Part shown: piece by piece, positions 1 to 20,329 of the stretch
How positions within the stretch are numbered: position 1 is the stretch's first letter
Layout: the number at the start of each line of letters is the position of its first letter
Virus record (IMG/VR): IMGVR_UViG_2778261463_000014
Length of the DNA stretch: 20,704 nucleotides
Reading direction: 5' to 3' (one strand)
Origin: a virus
Taxonomy: Duplodnaviria; Heunggongvirae; Uroviricota; Caudoviricetes
The notes under the pieces: model-generated
Database searches by the model: none
Seen by the model: the letters and a program-made list of their open reading frames with translations, nothing else
Told to the model about the DNA's origin: nothing
Translations under genes and position numbers: made by a program

Positions 1-19
1 CTATTTGATAAATATTAAA

Positions 20-1315
20 TTAATTTTTCATTGCTTCGTTATGGGGCATGGTTGGGGCAAACTCGCTTAACTGTGTATTTAACAAAGCTACCTGTGCATT
101 ATTGTTTTCAGACATCCATTTTCCGTATACCTGAAATACCATTTGCGCATCTGCATGGCCCATCTGGTTTGCTATAAATGCCGGGTTAGCACCAGCTGTC
201 AGCGACCAGCAGGCATAAGTATGTCTCGACTGATATGATTTTCGATGGCGGAGTCCGGCACGTTTTATCGCTGCGTCCCACATCTGCCTTATTGAGTCAA
301 CGGTAAAATGGTCACCATAATTTTTTACTCTCGCTGACACTTCAGGTTGAAAAACAAAGGTGCATTTTTGTTTTTCTGTTCTGCCATACTCTCTGAGGTG
401 AACATCAATGATATGCTCTTTGCTCAGTCTCGTTAATGTCATCTGACTCCGGAGAGCGTCGATTGCTGGCTTAATAAGATGAATGACCCGATTGGTTCCC
501 GCCTGTGTTTTTGGTACCGTGAAACGGTCTTTTGCTAAATTTCTCCTGATCATCATTGTTCCATTTTTCAGATCTATGTCCTCCCATCCAAGTGCACACA
601 GCTCACCAGGGCGAACTCCAGTATAAACAGAAACACACCATAAATTTTTTGCTTGCTGATTTCTGCACGCATCGATAAGACGGATAAATTCTTCCCGCGA
701 AAGAGGATCCGGAATGGTTCTTGATTCCTTTAATGGCGAGATCCCCTTAAACGGATTATCTGCCAGGTAACCGTTATCAACACCAAACTGGAACACGGCG
801 TTAAGATTTGTCATGTAATTATTTACAGTTACAGCCGATCTCCCTGGTTGTGTAACAATATAGTTACTTTTGGGGATCTGGTATCCAGTCAGTAACTCTT
901 TACGAACCTCCAGTAATTTTTCTTTATTAATCGATGAGGCAAGATTTTTTTCACCGATTATGCTCAGGATATTTTTGATGACGGCACGGTATGTGTTGAG
1001 TGATGTTTTGGCGACTTCAGTTTCTTTCAGTGCCAGAAATTTTTCAGCCAGTTCTTTTATGGTTAAATCTTGTCGGGCCTCACCAAATTTTTCCAGATTG
1101 CGTGAGGAGGGAAACTGTTTTGCATAGTCGAAAACACCAGTTTTTATTGCGTAACAAACAGAGGAGCGTAGTTCACCTGCAACGCGCCTGTTTTTTGCTG
1201 TGTCAGGAACCCCCAGATTTTCCCTGACTCTTACGTCTTTATAAACAAACCAGATACGTAATTTCCCTCCATGGTTTTCCACGCCTGTCGGATATTTCAT
1301 TTCAACTTCTCTCAT
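20..1315 (-). CDS. Phage integrase, tyrosine recombinase (IntR/IntS-like N-terminus); start may be the internal Met at 1300
   Basis: 431-aa ORF. N-terminus MKYPTGVENHGGKLRIWF resembles the arm-binding domain of IntR-type prophage integrases; C-terminal region has Arg/His/Tyr-containing segments typical of tyrosine recombinases. Position at the prophage end followed by a small xis-like ORF. Confidence 0.85.
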   Translation of the reverse strand: MREVEMKYPTGVENHGGKLRIWFVYKDVRVRENLGVPDTAKNRRVAGELRSSVCYAIKTGVFDYAKQFPSSRNLEKFGEARQDLTIKELAEKFLALKETEVAKTSLNTYRAVIKNILSIIGEKNLASSINKEKLLEVRKELLTGYQIPKSNYIVTQPGRSAVTVNNYMTNLNAVFQFGVDNGYLADNPFKGISPLKESRTIPDPLSREEFIRLIDACRNQQAKNLWCVSVYTGVRPGELCALGWEDIDLKNGTMMIRRNLAKDRFTVPKTQAGTNRVIHLIKPAIDALRSQMTLTRLSKEHIIDVHLREYGRTEKQKCTFVFQPEVSARVKNYGDHFTVDSIRQMWDAAIKRAGLRHRKSYQSRHTYACWSLTAGANPAFIANQMGHADAQMVFQVYGKWMSENNNAQVALLNTQLSEFAPTMPHNEAMKN

Positions 1316-1334
1316 TAGTTAGTGTGGCTTTTAG

Positions 1335-1586
1335 TCAAGTAAGATGACGTCTTGGTCTCGCTGATGCCTGGCGCTCAATCCAGCGATCAATTTCTTCCAG
1401 GTTGTAAAAGCATGGACTGTTATCCCATGGCATACCGTCATGAGCGACATGCTTATATTCCCTTCCTTCCATAAACGATTTTTCCCGGGCCTTTTTTAAC
1501 GTACCTTTTTTTATTCCTTTCAGCGCAATTAACTGCTCTTCGGATACCCATTTGCCGGGAGAGACAATCATGATTACTTCGCTCAT
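1335..1586 (-). CDS. Putative excisionase / small DNA-binding protein
   Basis: 83-aa ORF immediately upstream of, and co-oriented with, the integrase; basic C-terminus. Assigned by position and size, not by recognised motifs. Confidence 0.6.
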   Translation of the reverse strand: MSEVIMIVSPGKWVSEEQLIALKGIKKGTLKKAREKSFMEGREYKHVAHDGMPWDNSPCFYNLEEIDRWIERQASARPRRHLT

Positions 1587-1615
1587 CGATTTCTTTATCT
1601 CTTACATCAGACGAG

Positions 1616-1647
1616 CGCCGGTTGCAGAATACCAGTCACAACCGGCG
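1616..1647. repeat. Perfect 9-bp inverted repeat (CGCCGGTTG / CAACCGGCG, 14-nt loop) between the exonuclease stop and the xis start
   Basis: Read directly from the sequence. No U-run follows on the transcribed (minus) strand, so it is not a classical intrinsic terminator. Confidence 0.5.
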
Positions 1648-1658
1648 ACAGTTGAACA

Positions 1659-3290
1659 TTAAGAATCAGCCTGACTCGGGATCAGTTTTTGCCAGATAAC
1701 TGAAACGTATTTTGCCTGGTAACGGGCGTCATCAAGTGCATTATGGCGCTCACCTTCGAATGGAATAGCCGTTCTGGCATCGAAGTCTATGGCTTTCCCC
1801 AGCTCAACGATTGTGCGTACATCGCGATCGTTGTAGTAACGCCACGGGCAGGGGATCCCCTGCCGTTCGTATGAACGGCGCAAAATCGTGTTGTCGAAGT
1901 TGGCTCCATTTCCCCAAACCTGAACAAAAAATTCACCGGAGTTTTCGTCGATAAATTCTCGCAATTGTAACAGTGCATCATCTAACGGGATTTCATCGGT
2001 CATAATGGCAGATTGCGCTTCGCGTGATTGCTTAAGCCACCATTTAATGGTGTCCCGATCAATGACTCCGCCAGCAGTTTCCAGATCGATAGTCTTACTA
2101 AATTCCGGTCCCATATCTCCGGTTTGCGGATCGAAAAATATTGCACCTATTGAGATGATCGGGGCATCAGGATTTTTTCCCATGGTTTCAAGGTCGATCA
2201 TTAGATGGTCACACGTCCTGCTGGTGGATGTGATTTCGTGATGACCGTTCACCTTAATTGGGTGATCTGCCGTCTCGCCAGTTTCATTATCGCTATTGTG
2301 ATGCTGATTGCCGCCAGTGTTCTCCTTGTGTGGATGTTCAGCGCCTTCCATTTCCTCCGGATCATCTTCCTGAACTTCAACCTGATACTCTTCATCGAAT
2401 GTTTCTTGGTATGTTGCGTCGCCCATCACCGCGCCACAATCAGGGCAGTTGCCGCCGCCGGTCTGACCGCAGGCGGTGCAGACTTTTTCCACTTCCTGTT
2501 GCGCTACTGGTTCAGGCTGTTTCGTTTCTGGCTCGTTTTGTAACGCATTTGGACTGTTTTGTTCCGCTTTTTGGTAGTTCCGTTCCGATTCATGCTGGTT
2601 CTGGTTCACAGAATCGCGGGTCTGGAGCCCCTTAACCCATTTCGGATCATTCGGGTCACTAATCCCTTCAACAAATTCACCACGTGATGCAGCAAGCAAC
2701 TTATCGGCGTCAGGCTGGCTGATATTGGCTGCCTGCATAATTTTGTTTACTTCGTCAGCGGTAACTTTTATCGGCTCTGGTTGTTCTGAATCTTCAGCGG
2801 TATCTACATTTTGCGGTAAGCCCGTGTATGTGCCATTTTTTCGGGCAAAATATTCTTCTTTTGTGATTTCAGTGGCGCCAGCAGCCAGTGCCTTATCCAG
2901 ACCAGAGAGTTTGTTTGCGCGACCGTATTTTTCTCCGTCCTTATCTGCGAAGAGGAAATAGAACGGCCCCTCACGCTCTACAGATGGTTCAGCTTCCGGC
3001 GCGGTTTCATTTTTTGGGATATCAGATACCTCAGTTTCCACTGCATCAGTTTGTGTTTCTGATGACTGGAGAACATCAACAGTGCCCAGGTCTGTTTCTT
3101 CATTCTCAAACACGCCCTTTGTCGTCAGGTATTCGCAGATATATTTGTTCAGTGCTACGGGATCTTTGTGAATGTCGATCGGACGCTCACGGACAAGGCC
3201 AAAAATAGTTTGGCGGTCGTAGCGAAGGGCATCAGGCTGTTTGCGCATTGATGCCGAGATACGCTGAGGTAGCCTGAGTTTAACGGACAC
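1659..3290 (-). CDS. Phage exonuclease-like protein: C-terminal DnaQ-like DEDDh 3'-5' exonuclease domain (about 1659-2231), acidic N-terminal region with a CxxC-x7-CxxC motif; IS remnants begin just upstream, so the N-terminus may be truncated
   Basis: 543-aa ORF. Exo motifs visible: I = MIDLETMG, II = WGNGANFDNTIL, III = HNALDDARYQAKY. The nearest start codon lies about 40 bp from the IS3-family orfA fragment. Confidence 0.8.
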   Translation of the reverse strand: MSVKLRLPQRISASMRKQPDALRYDRQTIFGLVRERPIDIHKDPVALNKYICEYLTTKGVFENEETDLGTVDVLQSSETQTDAVETEVSDIPKNETAPEAEPSVEREGPFYFLFADKDGEKYGRANKLSGLDKALAAGATEITKEEYFARKNGTYTGLPQNVDTAEDSEQPEPIKVTADEVNKIMQAANISQPDADKLLAASRGEFVEGISDPNDPKWVKGLQTRDSVNQNQHESERNYQKAEQNSPNALQNEPETKQPEPVAQQEVEKVCTACGQTGGGNCPDCGAVMGDATYQETFDEEYQVEVQEDDPEEMEGAEHPHKENTGGNQHHNSDNETGETADHPIKVNGHHEITSTSRTCDHLMIDLETMGKNPDAPIISIGAIFFDPQTGDMGPEFSKTIDLETAGGVIDRDTIKWWLKQSREAQSAIMTDEIPLDDALLQLREFIDENSGEFFVQVWGNGANFDNTILRRSYERQGIPCPWRYYNDRDVRTIVELGKAIDFDARTAIPFEGERHNALDDARYQAKYVSVIWQKLIPSQADS

Positions 3291-3328
3291 TCCTTCCTGA
3301 AATAGAATGGCATCAGAAGGAGCTAATA

Positions 3329-3591
3329 ATGAGCAGAAAAACCCAACGTTACTCTAAAGAGTTCAAAGCCGAAGCTGTCAGAACGGTTCTTGAAAATCAA
3401 CTTTCGATCAGTGAAGGCGCTTCCCGACTATCTCTTCCTGAAGGCACTTTAGGACAATGGGTTACCGCCGCCAGAAAAGGGCTCGGTACTCCTGGTTCCC
3501 GCACGGTGGCTGAACTGGAATCTGAAATTCTGCAACTGCGTAAGGCGTTAAATGAAGCTCGCCTTGAGCGAGATATATTAAAAAAAGCAAC
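3329..3591 (+). pseudogene. IS3-family (IS600-like) transposase OrfA fragment, interrupted at 3591/3592 by IS30
   Basis: Translation MSRKTQRYSKEFKAEAVRTVLENQ...LERDILKKAT is an IS3-family OrfA (HTH plus leucine-zipper region). Reading continues into the IS30 left end (the listed ORF 3329-3697 is a fusion artefact). The element's own left boundary (about 3290-3328) is uncertain. Confidence 0.7.
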
Positions 3592-4331
3592 TGTAGATTC
3601 AATTGGTCAACGCAACAGTTATGTGAAAACATGGGGTTGCGGAGGTTTTTTGAATGAGACGAACATTTACAGCAGAGGAAAAAGCCTCTGTTTTTGAACT
3701 ATGGAAGAACGGAACAGGCTTCAGTGAAATAGCGAATATCCTGGGTTCAAAACCCGGAACGATCTTCACTATGTTAAGGGATACTGGCGGCATAAAACCC
3801 CATGAGCATAAGCGGGCTGTAGCTCACCTGACACTGTCTGAGCGCGAGGAGATACGAGCTGGTTTGTCAGCCAAAATGAGCATTCGTGCGATAGCTACTG
3901 CGCTGAATCGCAGTCCTTCGACGATCTCACGTGAAGTTCAGCGTAATCGGGGCAGACGCTATTACAAAGCTGTTGATGCTAATAACCGAGCCAACAGAAT
4001 GGCGAAAAGGCCAAAACCGTGCTTACTGGATCAAAATTTACCATTGCGAAAGCTTGTTCTGGAAAAGCTGGAGATGAAATGGTCTCCAGAGCAAATATCA
4101 GGATGGTTAAGGCGAACAAAACCACGTCAAAAAACGCTGCGAATATCACCTGAGACAATTTATAAAACGCTGTACTTTCGTAGCCGTGAAGCGCTACACC
4201 ACCTGAATATACAGCATCTGCGACGGTCGCATAGCCTTCGCCATGGCAGGCGTCATACCCGCAAAGGCGAAAGAGGTACGATTAACATAGTGAACGGAAC
4301 ACCAATTCACGAACGTTCCCGAAATATCGAT
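3592..4331 (+). mobile_element. IS30 5' fragment (left inverted repeat plus about 60% of the transposase gene); the 3' part and right IR are missing
   Basis: Sequence from 3592 (TGTAGATTCAATTGGTCAACGCAACAG...) matches the IS30 left end as I recall it. Homology to the IS30 transposase stops near 4331, where the sequence diverges. Confidence 0.8.
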
Positions 4332-4611: not shown

Positions 4612-4944
4612 TTAGACGTAAATATCAATGGTGCCAGCGGTATTTGTATCGTCTTTTTTCTCTTCTTTTTTATCAGGCTGAACTGTCGCGTCTTCATTCT
4701 TTTTCTCTGCCTGCTGCCTTAACAACTGCTCCAGTTGAGCCCAGAGGCTTTCAATTTGCTTCTGTACCAATGCAGCCATTTCTTTTTTCTGCTGTGTCGT
4801 CATCCCCTCTTCCGATGAGATTTTCCCAAGCTTTTCAGTCAGCACCTGAATTTGTCTTGTGATTTTGGCTATTTCTGATGTTCCTTCCGGGGCGGAGTTG
4901 TTTGAAATAACGGTTGAGGTATTTCCCTGAATTGTGACAGACAT
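4612..4944 (-). CDS. flxA: FlxA (sigma-28-dependent prophage protein)
   Basis: 110-aa translation MSVTIQGNTSTVISNNSAPEGTSEIAKITRQIQVLTEKLG... recognised as FlxA; a sigma-28 promoter lies upstream. Confidence 0.9.
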   Translation of the reverse strand: MSVTIQGNTSTVISNNSAPEGTSEIAKITRQIQVLTEKLGKISSEEGMTTQQKKEMAALVQKQIESLWAQLEQLLRQQAEKKNEDATVQPDKKEEKKDDTNTAGTIDIYV

Positions 4945-14360: not shown

Positions 14361-14594
14361 TCAATCTGGTCTGACCTGTTTTCTGAGCAATTCAGTAATG
14401 TCACTCTTTTCTTTGTTTGCTTCAGAAGAAACTCTTTTTTCTGAGCACAGTCTCCGGCGGCAGGCTTCAATGACCCAGGCTGAGAAATTCCCGGACCCTT
14501 TTTGCTCAAGAGCGATGTTAATTTGTTCAATCATTTGGTTAGGAAAGCGGATGTTGCGGGTTGTTGTTCTGCGGGTTCTGTTCTTCGTTGACAT
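14361..14594 (-). CDS. ynfO: Small ribbon-helix-helix-like DNA-binding protein (YnfO-like), upstream of and co-oriented with ydfO
   Basis: 77 aa; basic N-terminus then RNIRFPNQMIEQINIALEQKGSGNFSAWVIEACRRRL, resembling Arc/MetJ/CopG-type RHH folds. Confidence 0.7.
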   Translation of the reverse strand: MSTKNRTRRTTTRNIRFPNQMIEQINIALEQKGSGNFSAWVIEACRRRLCSEKRVSSEANKEKSDITELLRKQVRPD

Positions 14595-14759
14595 GAGGTT
14601 GCCCCGTATTCAGTGTCGCTGATTTGTATTGTCTGAAGTTGTTTTTACGTTAAGTTGATGCAGATCAATTAATACGATACCTGCGTCATAATTGATTATT
14701 TGACGTGGTTTGATGGCCTCCACGCACGTTGTGATATGTAGATGATAATCATTATCACT

Positions 14760-14980
14760 TTACGGGTCCTTTCCGGTGATCCGACAGGTTACGGGGCGGC
14801 GACCTCGCGGGTTTTCGCTATTTATGAAAATTTTCCGGTTTAAGGTGTTTCCGTTCTTCTTCGTCGTAACTTAATGTTTTTATTTAAAATACCCCCTGAA
14901 AAGAAAGGAAACGACAGGTGCTGAAAGCGGGCTTTTTGGCCTTTGTCGTTTCCTTTCTCTGTTTTTGTCCGTGGAATGAA
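14760..14980 (+). other. Lambda-type cos site: cosQ, cosN (12-nt cohesive end GGGCGGCGACCT at 14794-14805), cosB
   Basis: Sequence ...TTTACGGGTCCTTTCCGGTGATCCGACAGGTTACG|GGGCGGCGACCTCGCGGGTTTTCGCTATTTATGAAAATTTTCCGG... matches the joined right and left ends of phage lambda as I recall them, with a few substitutions. Confidence 0.85.
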
Positions 14981-14982
14981 CA

Positions 14983-15528
14983 ATGGAAGTCAACAAAAAG
15001 CAGCTGGCTGACATTTTCGGTGCGAGTATCCGTACCATTCAGAACTGGCAGGAACAGGGAATGCCCGTTCTGCGAGGCGGTGGCAAGGGTAATGAGGTGC
15101 TTTATGACTCTGCCGCCGTCATAAAATGGTATGCCGAAAGGGATGCTGAAATTGAGAACGAAAAGCTGCGCCGGGAGGTTGAAGAACTGCGGCAGGCCAG
15201 CGAGGCAGATCTCCAGCCAGGGACTATTGAGTACGAACGCCATCGACTTACGCGTGCGCAGGCCGACGCACAGGAACTGAAGAATGCCAGAGACTCCGCT
15301 GAAGTGGTGGAAACCGCATTCTGTACTTTCGTGTTGTCGCGGATCGCAGGTGAAATTGCCAGTATTCTCGACGGGATCCCCCTGTCGGTGCAGCGGCGTT
15401 TTCCGGAACTGGAAAACCGACATGTTGATTTCCTGAAACGGGATATCATCAAAGCCATGAACAAAGCAGCCGCGCTGGATGAACTGATACCGGGGTTGCT
15501 GAGTGAATATATCGAACAGTCAGGTTAA
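14983..15528 (+). CDS. nohQ: Terminase small subunit Nu1
   Basis: 181-aa translation MEVNKKQLADIFGASIRTIQNWQEQGMPVLRGGGKGNEVLYDSAAVIKWYAERD... essentially lambda Nu1; starts just after cosB. Confidence 0.95.
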   Translation: MEVNKKQLADIFGASIRTIQNWQEQGMPVLRGGGKGNEVLYDSAAVIKWYAERDAEIENEKLRREVEELRQASEADLQPGTIEYERHRLTRAQADAQELKNARDSAEVVETAFCTFVLSRIAGEIASILDGIPLSVQRRFPELENRHVDFLKRDIIKAMNKAAALDELIPGLLSEYIEQSG

Positions 15529-16564
15529 CAGGCTGCGGCATTTTGTCCGCGCCGGGCTTCGCTCACTGTTCAGGCCGGAGCCACAGACCGCCGTTGAATG
15601 GGCGGATGCTAATTACTATCTCCCGAAAGAATCCGCATACCAGGAAGGGCGCTGGGAAACACTGCCCTTTCAGCGGGCCATCATGAATGCGATGGGCAGC
15701 GACTACATCCGCGAGGTGAATGTGGTGAAGTCTGCCCGTGTTGGTTATTCCAAAATGCTGTTGGGTGTTTATGCCTACTTCATAGAGCATAAGCAGCGCA
15801 ACACACTTATCTGGTTGCCGACGGATGGTGATGCCGAGAACTTTATGAAAACCCACGTTGAGCCGACCATCCGCGATATTCCGTTGCTGCTGGCGCTGGC
15901 TCCGTGGTATGGCAAAAAGCACCGGGATAACACGCTCACCATGAAGCGTTTTTCCAATGGTCGTGGCTTCTGGTGCCTGGGCGGTAAAGCGGCAAAAAAC
16001 TACCGTGAAAAGTCGGTGGATGTGGCGGGTTATGATGAACTTGCTGCCTTTGATGAGGATATTGAACAGGAAGGCTCTCCGACGTTCCTTGGCGACAAAC
16101 GTATTGAAGGCTCGGTCTGGCCAAAGTCCATCCGTGGCTCCACCCCCAAAGTGAGAGGCACCTGCCAGATTGAGCGTGCAGCCAGTGAATCCCCGCATTT
16201 TATGCGTTTTCATGTTGCCTGTCCGCACTGCGGGGAGGAGCAGTACCTTAAATTTGGCGATAAAGAGACGTCGTTTGGCCTCAAATGGACGCCGGATGAT
16301 CCCTCCAGCGTGTTTTATCTCTGCGAACATAATGCCTGCGTCATCCGCCAGCAGGAACTGGACTTCACTGATGCCCGTTATATCTGCGAAAAGACCGGGA
16401 TCTGGACCCGTGATGGCATTCTCTGGTTTTCGTCATCCGGTGAAGAGATTGAGCCGCCGGACAGCGTGACCTTTCACATCTGGACGGCGTACAGCCCGTT
16501 CACCACCTGGGTGCAGATTGTCAAAGACTGGATGAAAACGAAAGGGGATACCTTCTGCCCGTAA
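15503..16564 (+). pseudogene. Terminase large subunit gpA, 3'-truncated: about 350 of about 640 residues, ending ...KTKGDT then FCP-stop
   Basis: Translation MNISNSQVNRLRHFVRAGLRSLFRPEPQTAVEWADANYYLPKESAYQEGRWETLPFQRAIMNAMG... matches the lambda A N-terminal region; start overlaps the Nu1 end as in lambda; homology stops near 16550. Confidence 0.85.
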
Positions 16565-16565
16565 G

Positions 16566-17750
16566 GTGAATGGTAAGGCGCTTTCAGCGGATATAACACT
16601 GACGCCGAAAGATATTGGTACGCTTAACTCAACAACAATGTCATTCAGCGGTGGTGCTGGTTGGTTCAAATTAGCAACGGTAACCATGCCACAGGCGAGT
16701 TCTGTTGTTTCAATTACGTTGATTGGTGGCGCGGGATTTAACGTGGGGTCACCTCAACAGGCAGGTATATCTGAACTTGTTTTGCGTGCAGGTAATGGTA
16801 ATCCGAAGGGGATTACTGGTGCTTTATGGCAGCGCACATCGACAGGGTTTACAAATTTTGCCTGGGTCAATACATCTGGTGATACTTACGATATTTACGT
16901 TGCAATCGGAAATTATGCGACTGGTGTAAATATTCAATGGGATTATACCAGTAATGCCAGCGTGACGATTCATACGTCACCAGCATATTCTGCTAATAAG
17001 CCGGAAGGGTTAACGGACGGTACAGTTTATTCACTCTATACGCCATCAGAGCAGTTTTATCCGCCTGGCGCACCAATCCCGTGGCCATCAGATACCGTTC
17101 CGTCTGGCTATGCCCTGATGCAGGGGCAGACTTTTGACAAATCTGCATACCCGAAACTTGCAGCCGCTTATCCGTCAGCCGTGATCCCTGATATGCGTGG
17201 CTGGACGATTAAGGGCAAACCCGCCAGTGGTCGTGCCGTATTGTCTCAGGAACAGGACGGCATTAAATCGCACACCCACAGCGCCAGCGCATCCAGTACG
17301 GATTTGGGGACGAAAAACACATCGTCGTTTGATTACGGAACCAAATCCACGAATAACACCGGGGCGCATACCCATAGTATTAGCGGGACTGCAAATAGTG
17401 CCGGTGCGCACCAACACAAGAGTTCCGGTGCATTTGGTGGCACGAACACGAGCATTTTCCCTAATGGTTATACCGCGATTTCAAATCTAAGCGCGGGGAT
17501 TATGAGCACAACAAGCGGTAGTGGCCAGACTCGTAATGCAGGGAAGACATCATCAGATGGTGCTCATACCCACTCGCTGTCCGGCACTGCTGCAAGCGCA
17601 GGCGCACATGCACATACTGTCGGTATTGGTGCTCATACGCACTCCGTTGCGATTGGCTCACACGGACACACCATCACCGTTAACGCTGCTGGTAACGCGG
17701 AAAACACCGTCAAAAACATCGCATTTAACTATATTGTGAGGCTTGCGTAA
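16566..17750 (+). pseudogene. Side tail fibre protein, C-terminal portion only (5'-truncated; abuts the truncated A gene)
   Basis: 394 codons with repeated GAHTHS / SAGAH motifs typical of lambdoid side-tail-fibre C-termini. The frame opens only at 16536 with a GTG at 16566, so it is unlikely to be expressed as a native protein. Confidence 0.8.
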
Positions 17751-18331
17751 TGGCATTCAGAATGAGTGAACAACCACGGACCATAAAAATTTATAATCTG
17801 CTGGCCGGAACTAATGAATTTATTGGTGAAGGTGATGCATATATTCCGCCTCATACAGGTCTGCCAGCAAACAGTACCGATATTGCACCGCCAGATATTC
17901 CGGCTGGCTTCGTGGCTGTTTTCAACAGTGATGAGTCATCGTGGCATCTTGTTGAAGACCATCGGGGTAAAACAGTTTATGACGTGGCATCAGGGGACGC
18001 GTTATTTATTTCTGAACTCGGCTCATTACCGGAAAATGTTACCTGGTTATCCCCGGAAGGGGAGTTTCAGAAGTGGAACGGCACAGCCTGGGTGAAGGAT
18101 ACGGAAGCAGAAAAACTGTTCCGGATCCGGGAGGTGGAAGAAACAAAAAACAGCCTGATGCAGGTAGCCAGTGAGCATATAGCGCCGCTTCAGGATGCTG
18201 TGGATCTGGAAATCGCAACGGAGGAAGAAACCTTGTTGCTGGAAGCCTGGAAAAAGTATCGGGTATTGCTGAACCGTGTTGATACGTCAACTGCACAGGA
18301 TATTGAATGGCCAGTAGCACCTATAGGGTAA
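17750..18331 (+). CDS. tfa: Tail fibre assembly protein (Tfa)
   Basis: 193 aa, follows the tail-fibre gene with an overlapping start (TAATG); size and position as lambda Tfa / TfaQ. Confidence 0.85.
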
Positions 18332-19189
18332 ATTCGTAATGATTACCTAAATACGTTATTCTTTTGTTCAAAAAGTGATTTTGCTATAGATAGGGAGTAT
18401 GTTCTTGGATTAAGAATAAAAATCGCCATGAAAGAGCTTCATGGCGAGTACATAAACGTACAAAATGTGATGAAAGTAGAGTGGCGTAAGCCACTATATT
18501 AAGATGTGACAATAGCGAAGAAAAGTAAATAACATTTTATGGACGTTTAATTGTTAATTATAAAAACTAGAGTGCCCGATATTGTTTACCTTGCTTTAAA
18601 ATAATGTACTCAAACCAAATTTTTGAGCTAAAAGCTCAAATAATATAAATGCAATAATAATGTTTAATAAGACAATTAGCTTGCTTTGTATTTTCATTTC
18701 GGAATACTGTTAAGTAACTTTGATGACCCTAACAATAGATCGGAATTTTCTTAGAGTCAATGGTCACTGTTTTTGCTTGCAAAGCAAATGTTTTGGTGGT
18801 TATAAGTTGTCTTAATATAGTCACGCATGCAACTTGTTCCATGCGGAGATTAAAGATTGGAATATAACGCTAAGATGGAATTAAATTACATTTGCAATAA
18901 TCAATTTATTATTACTCAATAATTACCGATATTATTATTGTAAATTAATCATTAGAGTGCAAAAAGAAATGTAACGGCAAAATAAGAGGACGATAGCTGA
19001 GAAAAAAGCGTGCTTTCCCAATCTGGGGCAAATCACGTCTGAATGACACCTGAAAACAGGTGGTAGCCTCAAGAAGGCTTGGAATATTCTTCTTTAATGT
19101 TATGTAATTCATTGATTTTTCGTGTACGATTTAAAGACATTTATTCCAAGAAAAATTTTTAACTCTTTGATTTTTCGACTCTGTATCAT

Positions 19190-19251
19190 CGGTCTCGAAA
19201 ACCGGAGTGGGGGCAACTCCACCGGGGGTTCAAATCCCCCTCTCTCCGCCA
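19190..19251 (+). other. tRNA-Ser(CGA)-like 3' fragment (anticodon stem-loop through CCA); not an intact tRNA gene
   Basis: CGGTCTCGAAAACCGGAGTGGGGGCAACTCCACCGGGGGTTCAAATCCCCCTCTCTCCGCCA matches the 3' two-thirds of a class II serine tRNA; the 5' half (acceptor 5' strand and D-arm) is absent upstream. Confidence 0.75.
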
Positions 19252-19297
19252 AAATTCAATCACTTATACATCATTAAGTCAGTGACAAAAATCACAC

Positions 19298-19332
19298 TTG
19301 GAATTACTTGGAATATTTTCTTGGAATATTTT
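19298..19332. repeat. Three tandem direct repeats (CTTGGAATTA / CTTGGAATATTTT / CTTGGAATATTTT) overlapping the last codons of int2
   Basis: Read directly from the sequence; arrangement parallels the three P' arm sites abutting the 3' end of lambda int. Confidence 0.6.
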
Positions 19333-20329
19333 CAGGTAACGGGACATCAAGTGTTGGTGAAACTTTAACCTTCCGGTCATAGATTAGCACTTGCCCTTCG
19401 GTTTTGTGACCAGAGAAAAGTTGCTTATCCCGGCTGCTTCCTTCATAGTCTGAAATTCCTTTCGCCTTCAGATCATGAAAGGTGAAGTCGGTTAAAATAC
19501 CTGAAACTTTGCCTGCGCGATTTCTTGCTTCTACCCACATTTCGTTAAAGCCTTTGTACATATATCGGTTGCCGTATTGATTGCTGATCACATAGGCGGA
19601 TTTTGGTAACTGTTTTGCTTTTTCGACCGCTGCCTGTAATCGTGGACTCCATGCTTTTATCTGTTTTTTCCCTGTTTTCCCTTGCTGGATAAAGATCCCG
19701 TCGTTTCCAATCTGCTCCCATTTCAGCGATAACACATCGGAAACCCTCGCTGCACACAGATAGGCAATTTCCATTGCGATAAAAACAGGAAGGGGTGCCA
19801 CGCTTAATACTGCCTGGTATTCTTTGTCGGTTACATATCGTTCGCGGTTTTTGGCCTTGAATTTACTTACACCTGCACATGGGTTAGCCTTCACGTACCC
19901 TCGCTCATACCCCCAACTGTAAACACGGGACATACTGCTTTTTTCATGGTTGGCTTGCGTTTTACTCTGTTCCCCTCTTTTGTCCATGTATCGACGGATG
20001 TGTTCTGGTTTTATGGAATCCGCTGGTACCTTACCGAATACGGCAAGCAACTTTTTTTGATGTTGCAGATAATCTTTTTGTGTTCTTGGACTAAGATCAC
20101 TGTAACAGGCGCTGGCGAGGAATTTTTCCCACAAGCGACCGAATGTCATTGCACGATCGCGATTATTTACAGTTTCCTCATACTTTTTCCATAAAGCAGC
20201 TAAACCATCCTTGATGGCGGTTAGTGTTACAGATTCTCTGGATGTTGGTTTCCATACATAACTATATTTATTTGGGTATACATTTGGAGGTAATTTTTCG
20301 TGTTCAGGATTTTTCCTTCGTCTTCCCAT
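19304..20329 (-). CDS. Lambda-family integrase (tyrosine recombinase)
   Basis: 341 aa; N-terminus MGRRRKNPEHEKLPPNVY resembles lambda Int MGRRRSHERRDLPPNLY; C-terminal GHK...(9 aa)...Y spacing as lambda H333/Y342. Confidence 0.9.
   Translation of the reverse strand: MGRRRKNPEHEKLPPNVYPNKYSYVWKPTSRESVTLTAIKDGLAALWKKYEETVNNRDRAMTFGRLWEKFLASACYSDLSPRTQKDYLQHQKKLLAVFGKVPADSIKPEHIRRYMDKRGEQSKTQANHEKSSMSRVYSWGYERGYVKANPCAGVSKFKAKNRERYVTDKEYQAVLSVAPLPVFIAMEIAYLCAARVSDVLSLKWEQIGNDGIFIQQGKTGKKQIKAWSPRLQAAVEKAKQLPKSAYVISNQYGNRYMYKGFNEMWVEARNRAGKVSGILTDFTFHDLKAKGISDYEGSSRDKQLFSGHKTEGQVLIYDRKVKVSPTLDVPLPENIPRKYSK

Follow-up and report, generated by a model that had tools for sequence, protein, structure and literature searches.

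The window analysed here is a stretch of 20,704 nucleotides in which two unrelated prophage modules are contiguous. Its left part is a defective, Qin-like prophage that ends with tfa, a tail-fibre assembly gene. Its right part carries int2, which encodes a lambda-type tyrosine integrase, followed by the gene of a small DUF4224 protein. Between the two lie an AT-rich spacer (hereafter named b region), a P arm, the 3' part of a tRNA-Ser(CGA) gene and a P' arm that runs into the end of int2 (Table 1).

Table 1. Features of the attachment region and of the genes that border it, with their positions in the window
Feature	Position	Strand	Remarks
tfa, tail-fibre assembly gene, 193 aa, last gene of the left defective prophage	17750..18331	+	Pfam Caudo_TAP, E 8e-43
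b region, AT-rich spacer of the relic-bearing prophage, 655 bp	18340..18994	.	Outside the conserved attP module
P arm (left arm) of the int2-type site	18995..19189	+	Same arm at HM670 attR, in relics and in POP' contigs
Terminator-like hairpin with T6 on the int2 strand, outer P-arm edge	18997..19040	-	Minus-strand fold, z = -1.9 only
P1-like arm-type site, direct, CTTGGAATATT	19078..19088	+	-111 from core start; motif match
IHF-consensus match, H1-like, YAANNNNTTGATW	19105..19117	-	Regex, consensus only; also in the HM670 P arm
P2-like arm-type site, inverted, TTATTCCAAG	19141..19150	-	-49..-41 from core start; motif match
IHF-consensus match near the core, H2-like	19160..19172	-	Consensus only
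Core, 19 bp, CGGTCTCGAAAACCGGAGT, identical in attP and serU	19190..19208	+	Alignment of POP', relic POB', attL BOP' and K-12 serU BOB'
tRNA-Ser(CGA) 3' part, 63 nt, phage-type allele	19190 (or 19191)..19252	+	No 5' half
P'-arm spacer, from tRNA end to P' arm-type sites	19253..19296	+	Same as attL of serU-located int2 prophages except one SNP
P'1 arm-type site, CTTGGAATTA	19297..19306	+	Covers the int2 stop codon
P'2 arm-type site, CTTGGAATATT	19307..19317	+	Within the last int2 codons
P'3 arm-type site, CTTGGAATATT	19320..19330	+	Within the last int2 codons
int2, lambda-type tyrosine integrase, 341 aa, intact	19304..20329	-	Pfam Phage_integrase and SAM-like central domain
DUF4224 protein, 67 aa	20329..20532	-	Pfam DUF4224, E 1e-14

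Residues 1-313 of Int2 align with the lambda Int structures 1z1b, 5j0n and 1z1g (E 1e-12 to 4e-12). The alignment begins at MGRRR...LPPN.Y, so that the N-terminal arm-binding segment is included; Pfam gave no call for an arm-binding domain in Int2, and the domain is assigned from the alignments to lambda Int and relatives. With the integrase of Salmonella phage ST64B, the annotation of which cites CP-933U, Int2 shares 59% identity; ST64B integrates at serU. The DUF4224 gene is found immediately upstream of int2 in every related locus, and its product is, from this position, a probable excisionase or directionality factor. Overall, the locus combines a tyrosine-recombinase domain and an N-terminal segment with arm sites that lie on both sides of the core and are distinct from it, as in a lambda-type attP.

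Five copies of an arm-type motif surround the core, two in the P arm and three in the P' arm. They had been pointed out in a sequence-only reading of this DNA, most of which stands. The 11-mer CTTGGAATATT was correctly placed at 19078-19088 and 19320-19330 and its inverted copy at 19141-19150, while the middle copy, given as 19308-19318, is at 19307-19317 and the tandem relative CTTGGAATTA, given as 19298-19307, is at 19297-19306. The overlap of the right-hand copies with the end of int2 was also borne out, two of them falling in the last codons and the third over the stop codon. Hence, P'2 and P'3 (19307-19330) also code for the last residues of Int2 (…NIPRKYSK; the equivalent site of Citrobacter phage Chris1 codes for …FYTK), and since the same bases serve both purposes, the arm motif and the C-terminal tail of the integrase constrain each other.

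The motif is more frequent at the site than chance predicts. With at most one mismatch, the 11-mer has three matches in the window, all of them at the att site, as compared to 0.65 expected; three matches were reached in 2 of 100 shuffled windows. Across 831 kb of sequence from E. coli and phage loci, the exact 11-mer was found 61 times, for about 0.45 copies expected from base composition, and every one of these copies is within 160 nt of a tRNA-Ser core (61/61, none elsewhere). The 11-mer is therefore not a common repeat, a possibility that the earlier reading had named as an objection to its proposal. In addition, the inverted arm copy belongs to a perfect complement (13/13) of 19142-19154 with 19316-19328. 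A further TTGGAATAT copy is present at 18857-18865, 333 nt left of the core and beyond the conserved P arm, probably by chance.

With C19190, where the core starts, as reference, the motif copies are positioned at -111 (direct), -49 (inverted), +108, +118 and +131. These offsets are kept within about 2 nt in the type-2 P arm of E. coli 2013C-3264 and in the sites of ST64B, Klebsiella phage KpF5 and Chris1, so that, the window included, they are conserved in five attP variants with three motifs. The inverted copy ends at -41 in all five variants compared, and the direct copy at -111 is also found in the type-2 arm, ST64B, KpF5 and Chris1, each with its own motif. The motif is unchanged in the strongly divergent type-2 arm, is TGAGAAAA in ST64B and KpF5 and is TTGGTATA in Chris1. 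The N-terminal segment of the integrase follows the motif type: phages with TTGG(A/T)ATA carry LPPxVxxNxYSYVWKP, and phages with TGAGAAAA carry WMPKGVFFRPSGYYWKP. If the system works like that of lambda, Int2 would bind the five arm-type sites (19078, direct; 19141, inverted; 19297, 19307 and 19320, in tandem) through its N-terminal domain, and its catalytic domains would act on the tRNA-Ser anticodon stem-loop at 19190-19208, with IHF-type bends in between.

Two matches to the IHF consensus are candidates for such bends. The type-2 P arm of 2013C-3264 prophage B, although divergent elsewhere, has the H2-like match of 19160-19172 at exactly the same offset (-30..-18). With the same kind of consensus regex, no H'-like match was found in the P' arm of the window and no exact match in the att sites of ST64B, KpF5 and Chris1. 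At the outer edge of the P arm, the terminator-like hairpin and its T-run are kept where the P arm is of type 1 (HM670, L011 and L012; in L012, one mismatched position has become paired) and are absent from the type-2 arm. By its position, the hairpin may be an element like tI/sib of lambda. Because a consensus terminator scan made no call at 18997-19040 and the folding z-score is -1.9, we treat it as a lead only.

The tRNA-Ser sequence in the middle of the site had been described as a 3' half of 62 nt with no 5' half. The missing 5' half was confirmed, ARAGORN finding no complete tRNA within the whole window, and the length is 63 nt (19190-19252). When the window was aligned with a P-O-B' relic (see below), the attR of HM670, an attL and K-12 serU, the sole stretch at the junction identical in phage and host was 19190-19208. 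This 19-bp core corresponds to the anticodon stem (CGGT/ACCG) around the 7-nt loop CTCGAAA, and we infer from the alignment that the anticodon stem-loop is the crossover region. Two compensating SNPs in the variable arm of the tRNA tell the two parents apart: the phage allele has G19209 and C19220, and the host allele, that of K-12 serU, has A and T. At attL, the full serU gene is found with a 3' part of the phage allele; at attR, the P arm is followed by a 3' part of the host allele. Therefore, the crossover is located left of 19209. The phage carries a tRNA 3' part, and the gene is intact at attL with a 3' fragment at attR, as in tRNA-gene-targeting attachment sites of the anticodon-loop class. 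An end of the shared core at 19253-19267 was considered and rejected, as chance similarity between P' and B' had lengthened the BLAST match.

From 19190 rightward, the window is identical to the attL of int2 prophages, which reads mtfA - serU (intact) - P' - int2 - DUF4224 - exo. Exact copies of Int2 are indexed in 1,981 blocks of a public assembly collection, and in 9 of the 9 genome contexts shown the protein adjoins mtfA with serU in between. On the left, the window has the P arm of this type of phage. In HM670, an int2 prophage of the CDT-I type, with cdtABC, is located at serU, and its far end matches window positions 19030-19189, both motif copies included, before continuing into the core and a tRNA 3' part of the host allele. 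Across the same tRNA-Ser core, this CDT-I prophage directly abuts an element with tcpC, a MobQ relaxase and RepL, the serU locus of HM670 being a prophage-plus-island tandem. The outer limit of the conserved P arm is set at 18995, because the homology of six short viral or metagenomic contigs carrying a P-O-P' site begins exactly there.

Phage DNA is thus found on both sides of the core, the left flank being always linked to a tail-fibre assembly gene, and the site is of the POP' type rather than a host-prophage junction, as had been proposed from the sequence. Host chromosome left of the core, the result that would have spoken against this proposal, was rejected as an explanation: the same P arm is found in captured attR relics, some of them in phages, and at the right end of the int2 prophage of HM670.

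Exact-protein look-ups returned only the canonical serU attL context, for Int2, and the context of a relic, for Tfa. The exact Tfa protein is found in defective prophages beside ybhB-bioA, and each time it is followed by a serU relic and an AraC-family gene. The order there is tfa - spacer - P arm - core - host-allele tRNA 3' part - about 300 bp - AraC-family gene - IS2 remnants, and the 300 bp are identical to the DNA downstream of K-12 serU. As the core is followed by the host tRNA allele and by serU-downstream DNA, these relics are captured serU attR junctions (P-O-B'), that is, host-derived attachment sequences inside another phage or prophage. Three phage records (ev099, mEp332 and PhiR70_1) and about 225 complete E. 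coli genomes have both the b region between tfa and the P arm and the relic module between tfa and the AraC-family gene. About 2 kb beyond this module, ev099 has integrase and excisionase genes of its own. The relics of ev099 and PhiR70_1 are intact; in that of mEp332 (around 4730-4860), both the arm site (CTTGAAATATT) and the core (CATCCGTCTCG) are mutated, and this relic may be unusable as a landing site.

The prophage that carries the relic in the window is itself composite. Window positions 1-3265 are 100% identical to Qin of strain EC590, next to rspB, and from 4328 to about 14950 the two are nearly identical (4 mismatches in 10 kb). Up to that point the window is Qin by sequence and by gene order from the integrase, and this part is found at ydfJ/rspB in many E. 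coli. The 1 kb of Qin early region at 3266-4327 has no counterpart in the Qin of EC590, where about 6.4 kb of IS66/ISNCY-laden DNA is found instead. The window departs from Qin at about 14950, with 24 mismatches in 15120-16357, and 14944-16551 has a single mismatch to the defective prophage usually located beside ybhB-bioA (att-lambda). The whole match to this relic-bearing prophage, 14432-19267, has 99.4% identity, and its ORFs have the same lengths as those of the window (181, 353, 394 and 193 aa). The switch, at about 14950-15100, is around the start of a nohA-like gene (14983). The left prophage is therefore a recombinant, which implies that two resident prophages had previously been joined by an exchange or an inversion. 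Just past tfa, on the strand opposite to it, 18447-18423 (minus strand) can form a strong terminator-like hairpin of 11 pairs followed by a T-run. A search of complete E. coli genomes found none that contains the whole window.

The origin of the junction can be read from marker SNPs. At 19064, 19110 and 19133, the P arm of the window carries the alleles of the relics, unlike the P arms borne by the phages of HM670 and L012; from 19209 onward the window carries phage alleles. Hence, the exchange took place within 19134-19208, an interval that contains the 19-bp core. This position around the core indicates that an int2 phage most likely inserted into the relic, rebuilding a junction equivalent to attP. 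The left half of the site consists of P arm and core from a captured serU attR relic (P-O-B') at the right end of a defective prophage, here the recombinant of Qin and of the prophage usually at att-lambda, and the right half is the P' arm of an incoming serU-specific phage. Exchange by Int in the relic's core would then give P-O-P'-int2...phage...P-O-B', with the second junction (P-O-B'-AraC) predicted past the right end of the window (20704). The site is located in a chromosome, not in a free phage. Overall, we regard it as probable that 18995-19330 forms a complete attachment site of the P-O-P' type, an attP equivalent for the adjacent int2, and, jointly with this, that it originated by insertion into the relic. 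The sequence-only reading had left a choice between an unrecombined attP and a hybrid site between tandem prophages. The hybrid, as a site between adjacent prophages, is the better supported of the two, with the refinement that the left arm derives from a captured serU attR relic and not from a second int2 prophage at serU.

As the window holds the left junction only, this insertion is directly documented in one other genome, that of E. coli 2013C-3264, which has both junctions. There, a prophage located at argW/dsdC contains the complete nested structure. At one end, the order is tfa - spacer - P-O-P' - int2; at the other, some 50 kb distant, it is espJ - tccP - P(type 2)-O-B' - AraC - IS remnants - intS. 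The exchange is inside the core, before the first of the tRNA SNPs. Homologous recombination in the arm is unlikely in this genome because the type-2 P arm of the incoming phage is too divergent.

A type-1 P-O-P' site was found in 11 of 5,426 complete genomes. A scan of viral contigs gave two contigs with a P-O-P' site, and a scan of one genome per species gave none. The int2 gene is annotated as frameshifted in several genomes with such a site (among 2013C-3264, 98-3133 and 2013C-4991); it is intact in the window and in the O55:H7 strain DEC5B.

A P-O-P' junction would also be expected from a classical tandem double lysogen, in which two int2-type phages integrated in turn at serU and homologous recombination at nohA/tfa later joined Qin to them. 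Such tandems are real: the serU locus of the O157:H16 strain 98-3133 reads mtfA-serU-P'-int2...nleG-P-O-P'-int2..., and the same middle junction, nleG-P-O-P'-int2, was found in DEC5B and 2013C-4991, of which this part of the locus was examined. Recombination between prophages has, moreover, clearly shaped the window. However, what lies left of the core in the window is the material of the relic-bearing prophage, as the exact Tfa protein, the b region and the P arm all match it, and the three diagnostic positions of the P arm have its alleles instead of those of phage-borne arms. In addition, none of the six viral or metagenomic POP' contigs has the b region (18340-18994), and among complete genomes with a P-O-P' site this relic spacer is present in 2013C-3264 only. 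A tandem origin of the window's junction is thus unlikely.

The exchange interval also spans 56 bp of P arm shared by the two parents, where RecA-dependent recombination between the P arm or late region of a type-1-arm phage and the resident prophage would give the same product as insertion. Alternatively, the join could be an assembly artefact from reads of the excised circular phage, since a free circular phage would give true attP reads, and the six short contigs do carry POP'. These two routes, taken together, appear quite improbable. Against RecA, the exchange in 2013C-3264 is inside the core in spite of the divergent type-2 arm of the incoming phage. Against an artefact, the P-arm alleles of the phage itself would be expected at the join, whereas the window has relic alleles up to 19133. 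In addition, a phage with the defective terminase/tail-fibre fusion of the window as its late region would be non-viable. We infer that Int, and not RecA, carried out the exchange.

Finally, an unrecombined attP of one phage genome running from Qin-like late genes into int2 would agree with the order tfa - spacer - attP - int - xis - exo, which is that of the vegetative lambda genome, but is hardly credible, because the left 15 kb are the chromosomal, defective Qin prophage, which has an integrase of its own where the window begins, a terminase/tail-fibre deletion and no head or tail genes, and the element would carry two integrase modules.

Insertion of an int2 phage into the relic would explain why two unrelated prophage modules are contiguous in the window, which matters for the delimitation of prophages and for the interpretation of prophage clusters of pathogenic E. 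coli. We also propose, tentatively, that the captured serU attR could act as a mobile landing pad, the insertion giving a phage flanked by attP and attR in place of attL and attR, a pair that, by analogy with the lambda att pairings, might recombine with Int alone; we consider this conceivable rather than likely. Such a pad would ride in defective prophages and in phages deposited as complete genomes (ev099, mEp332 and PhiR70_1). Since it keeps the full P arm, insertion of a serU phage would rebuild a complete attP beside int2, and a P-arm element affecting int expression, for instance the hairpin at 19040-18997, would be back in cis to int2. Nested prophages could then differ from the same phage located at serU in stability and regulation, and could travel with their host phage. 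The site also provides a sequence-level map (arm sites, core and likely bending sites) for a very common E. coli integrase. The geometry conserved across relatives with different motifs supports this map, and binding and recombination experiments are easy to design from it.

The attP of lambda has the layout P1-H1-P2-X/F-H2-COC'-H'-P'1P'2P'3, with an arm consensus that differs from CTTGGAATATT. The site of the window resembles it in several ways. Int2 is an integrase of the heterobivalent type, homologous to lambda Int from residue 1; two arm-type sites are present in the P arm, and three in tandem in the P' arm abut or overlap the int 3' end; matches to the IHF consensus, as putative bending sites, are positioned between arm sites and core. 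In contrast to lambda, a tRNA anticodon stem-loop takes the place of the lambda core, the putative P-arm sites are mutually inverted and no H'-like IHF match was found in the P' arm. As in tandem double lysogens of lambda, a P-O-P' junction arises where a second phage enters an existing prophage junction.

Int2 belongs with the serU-targeting integrases of ST64B and of E. coli prophages of the CP-933U/Sp14 type, with which the site of the window shares the tRNA-Ser(CGA) 3' part in attP and the arm-site offsets. ST64B and KpF5 differ from int2 in their motif, TGAGAAAA, in the type of integrase N-terminus and in the P' sites, which are downstream of the int stop codon instead of inside the coding sequence. 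In the available part of the ST64B paper (PMC12455584), attP appears as a qPCR and in vitro substrate only, with no arm-site mapping. Our literature searches, which were noisy (serU being confounded with 'serum'), returned no published arm-site mapping for the int2/ST64B integrase group and no earlier description of tandem or nested serU prophages or of their arm sites.

Integration of phages into host-derived attachment sequences inside prophages has been described before (attB-in-PP_1, _2 and _3; Nakamura et al. 2021, PLoS Pathog, PMC8112680). [quoted passage not shown] The site of the window is a fresh example of this known process and not a new mechanism: here too, a host-derived attachment sequence within a prophage would be the landing site of another phage, and the serU-derived site would be the fourth of its kind. 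How attB sequences enter phage genomes was left open in PMC8112680, and capture of a whole attR suggests one route. Unlike in the published cases, the captured piece is a whole attR, consisting of P arm, core and B', and therefore the insertion regenerates a full equivalent of attP instead of an ordinary attL.
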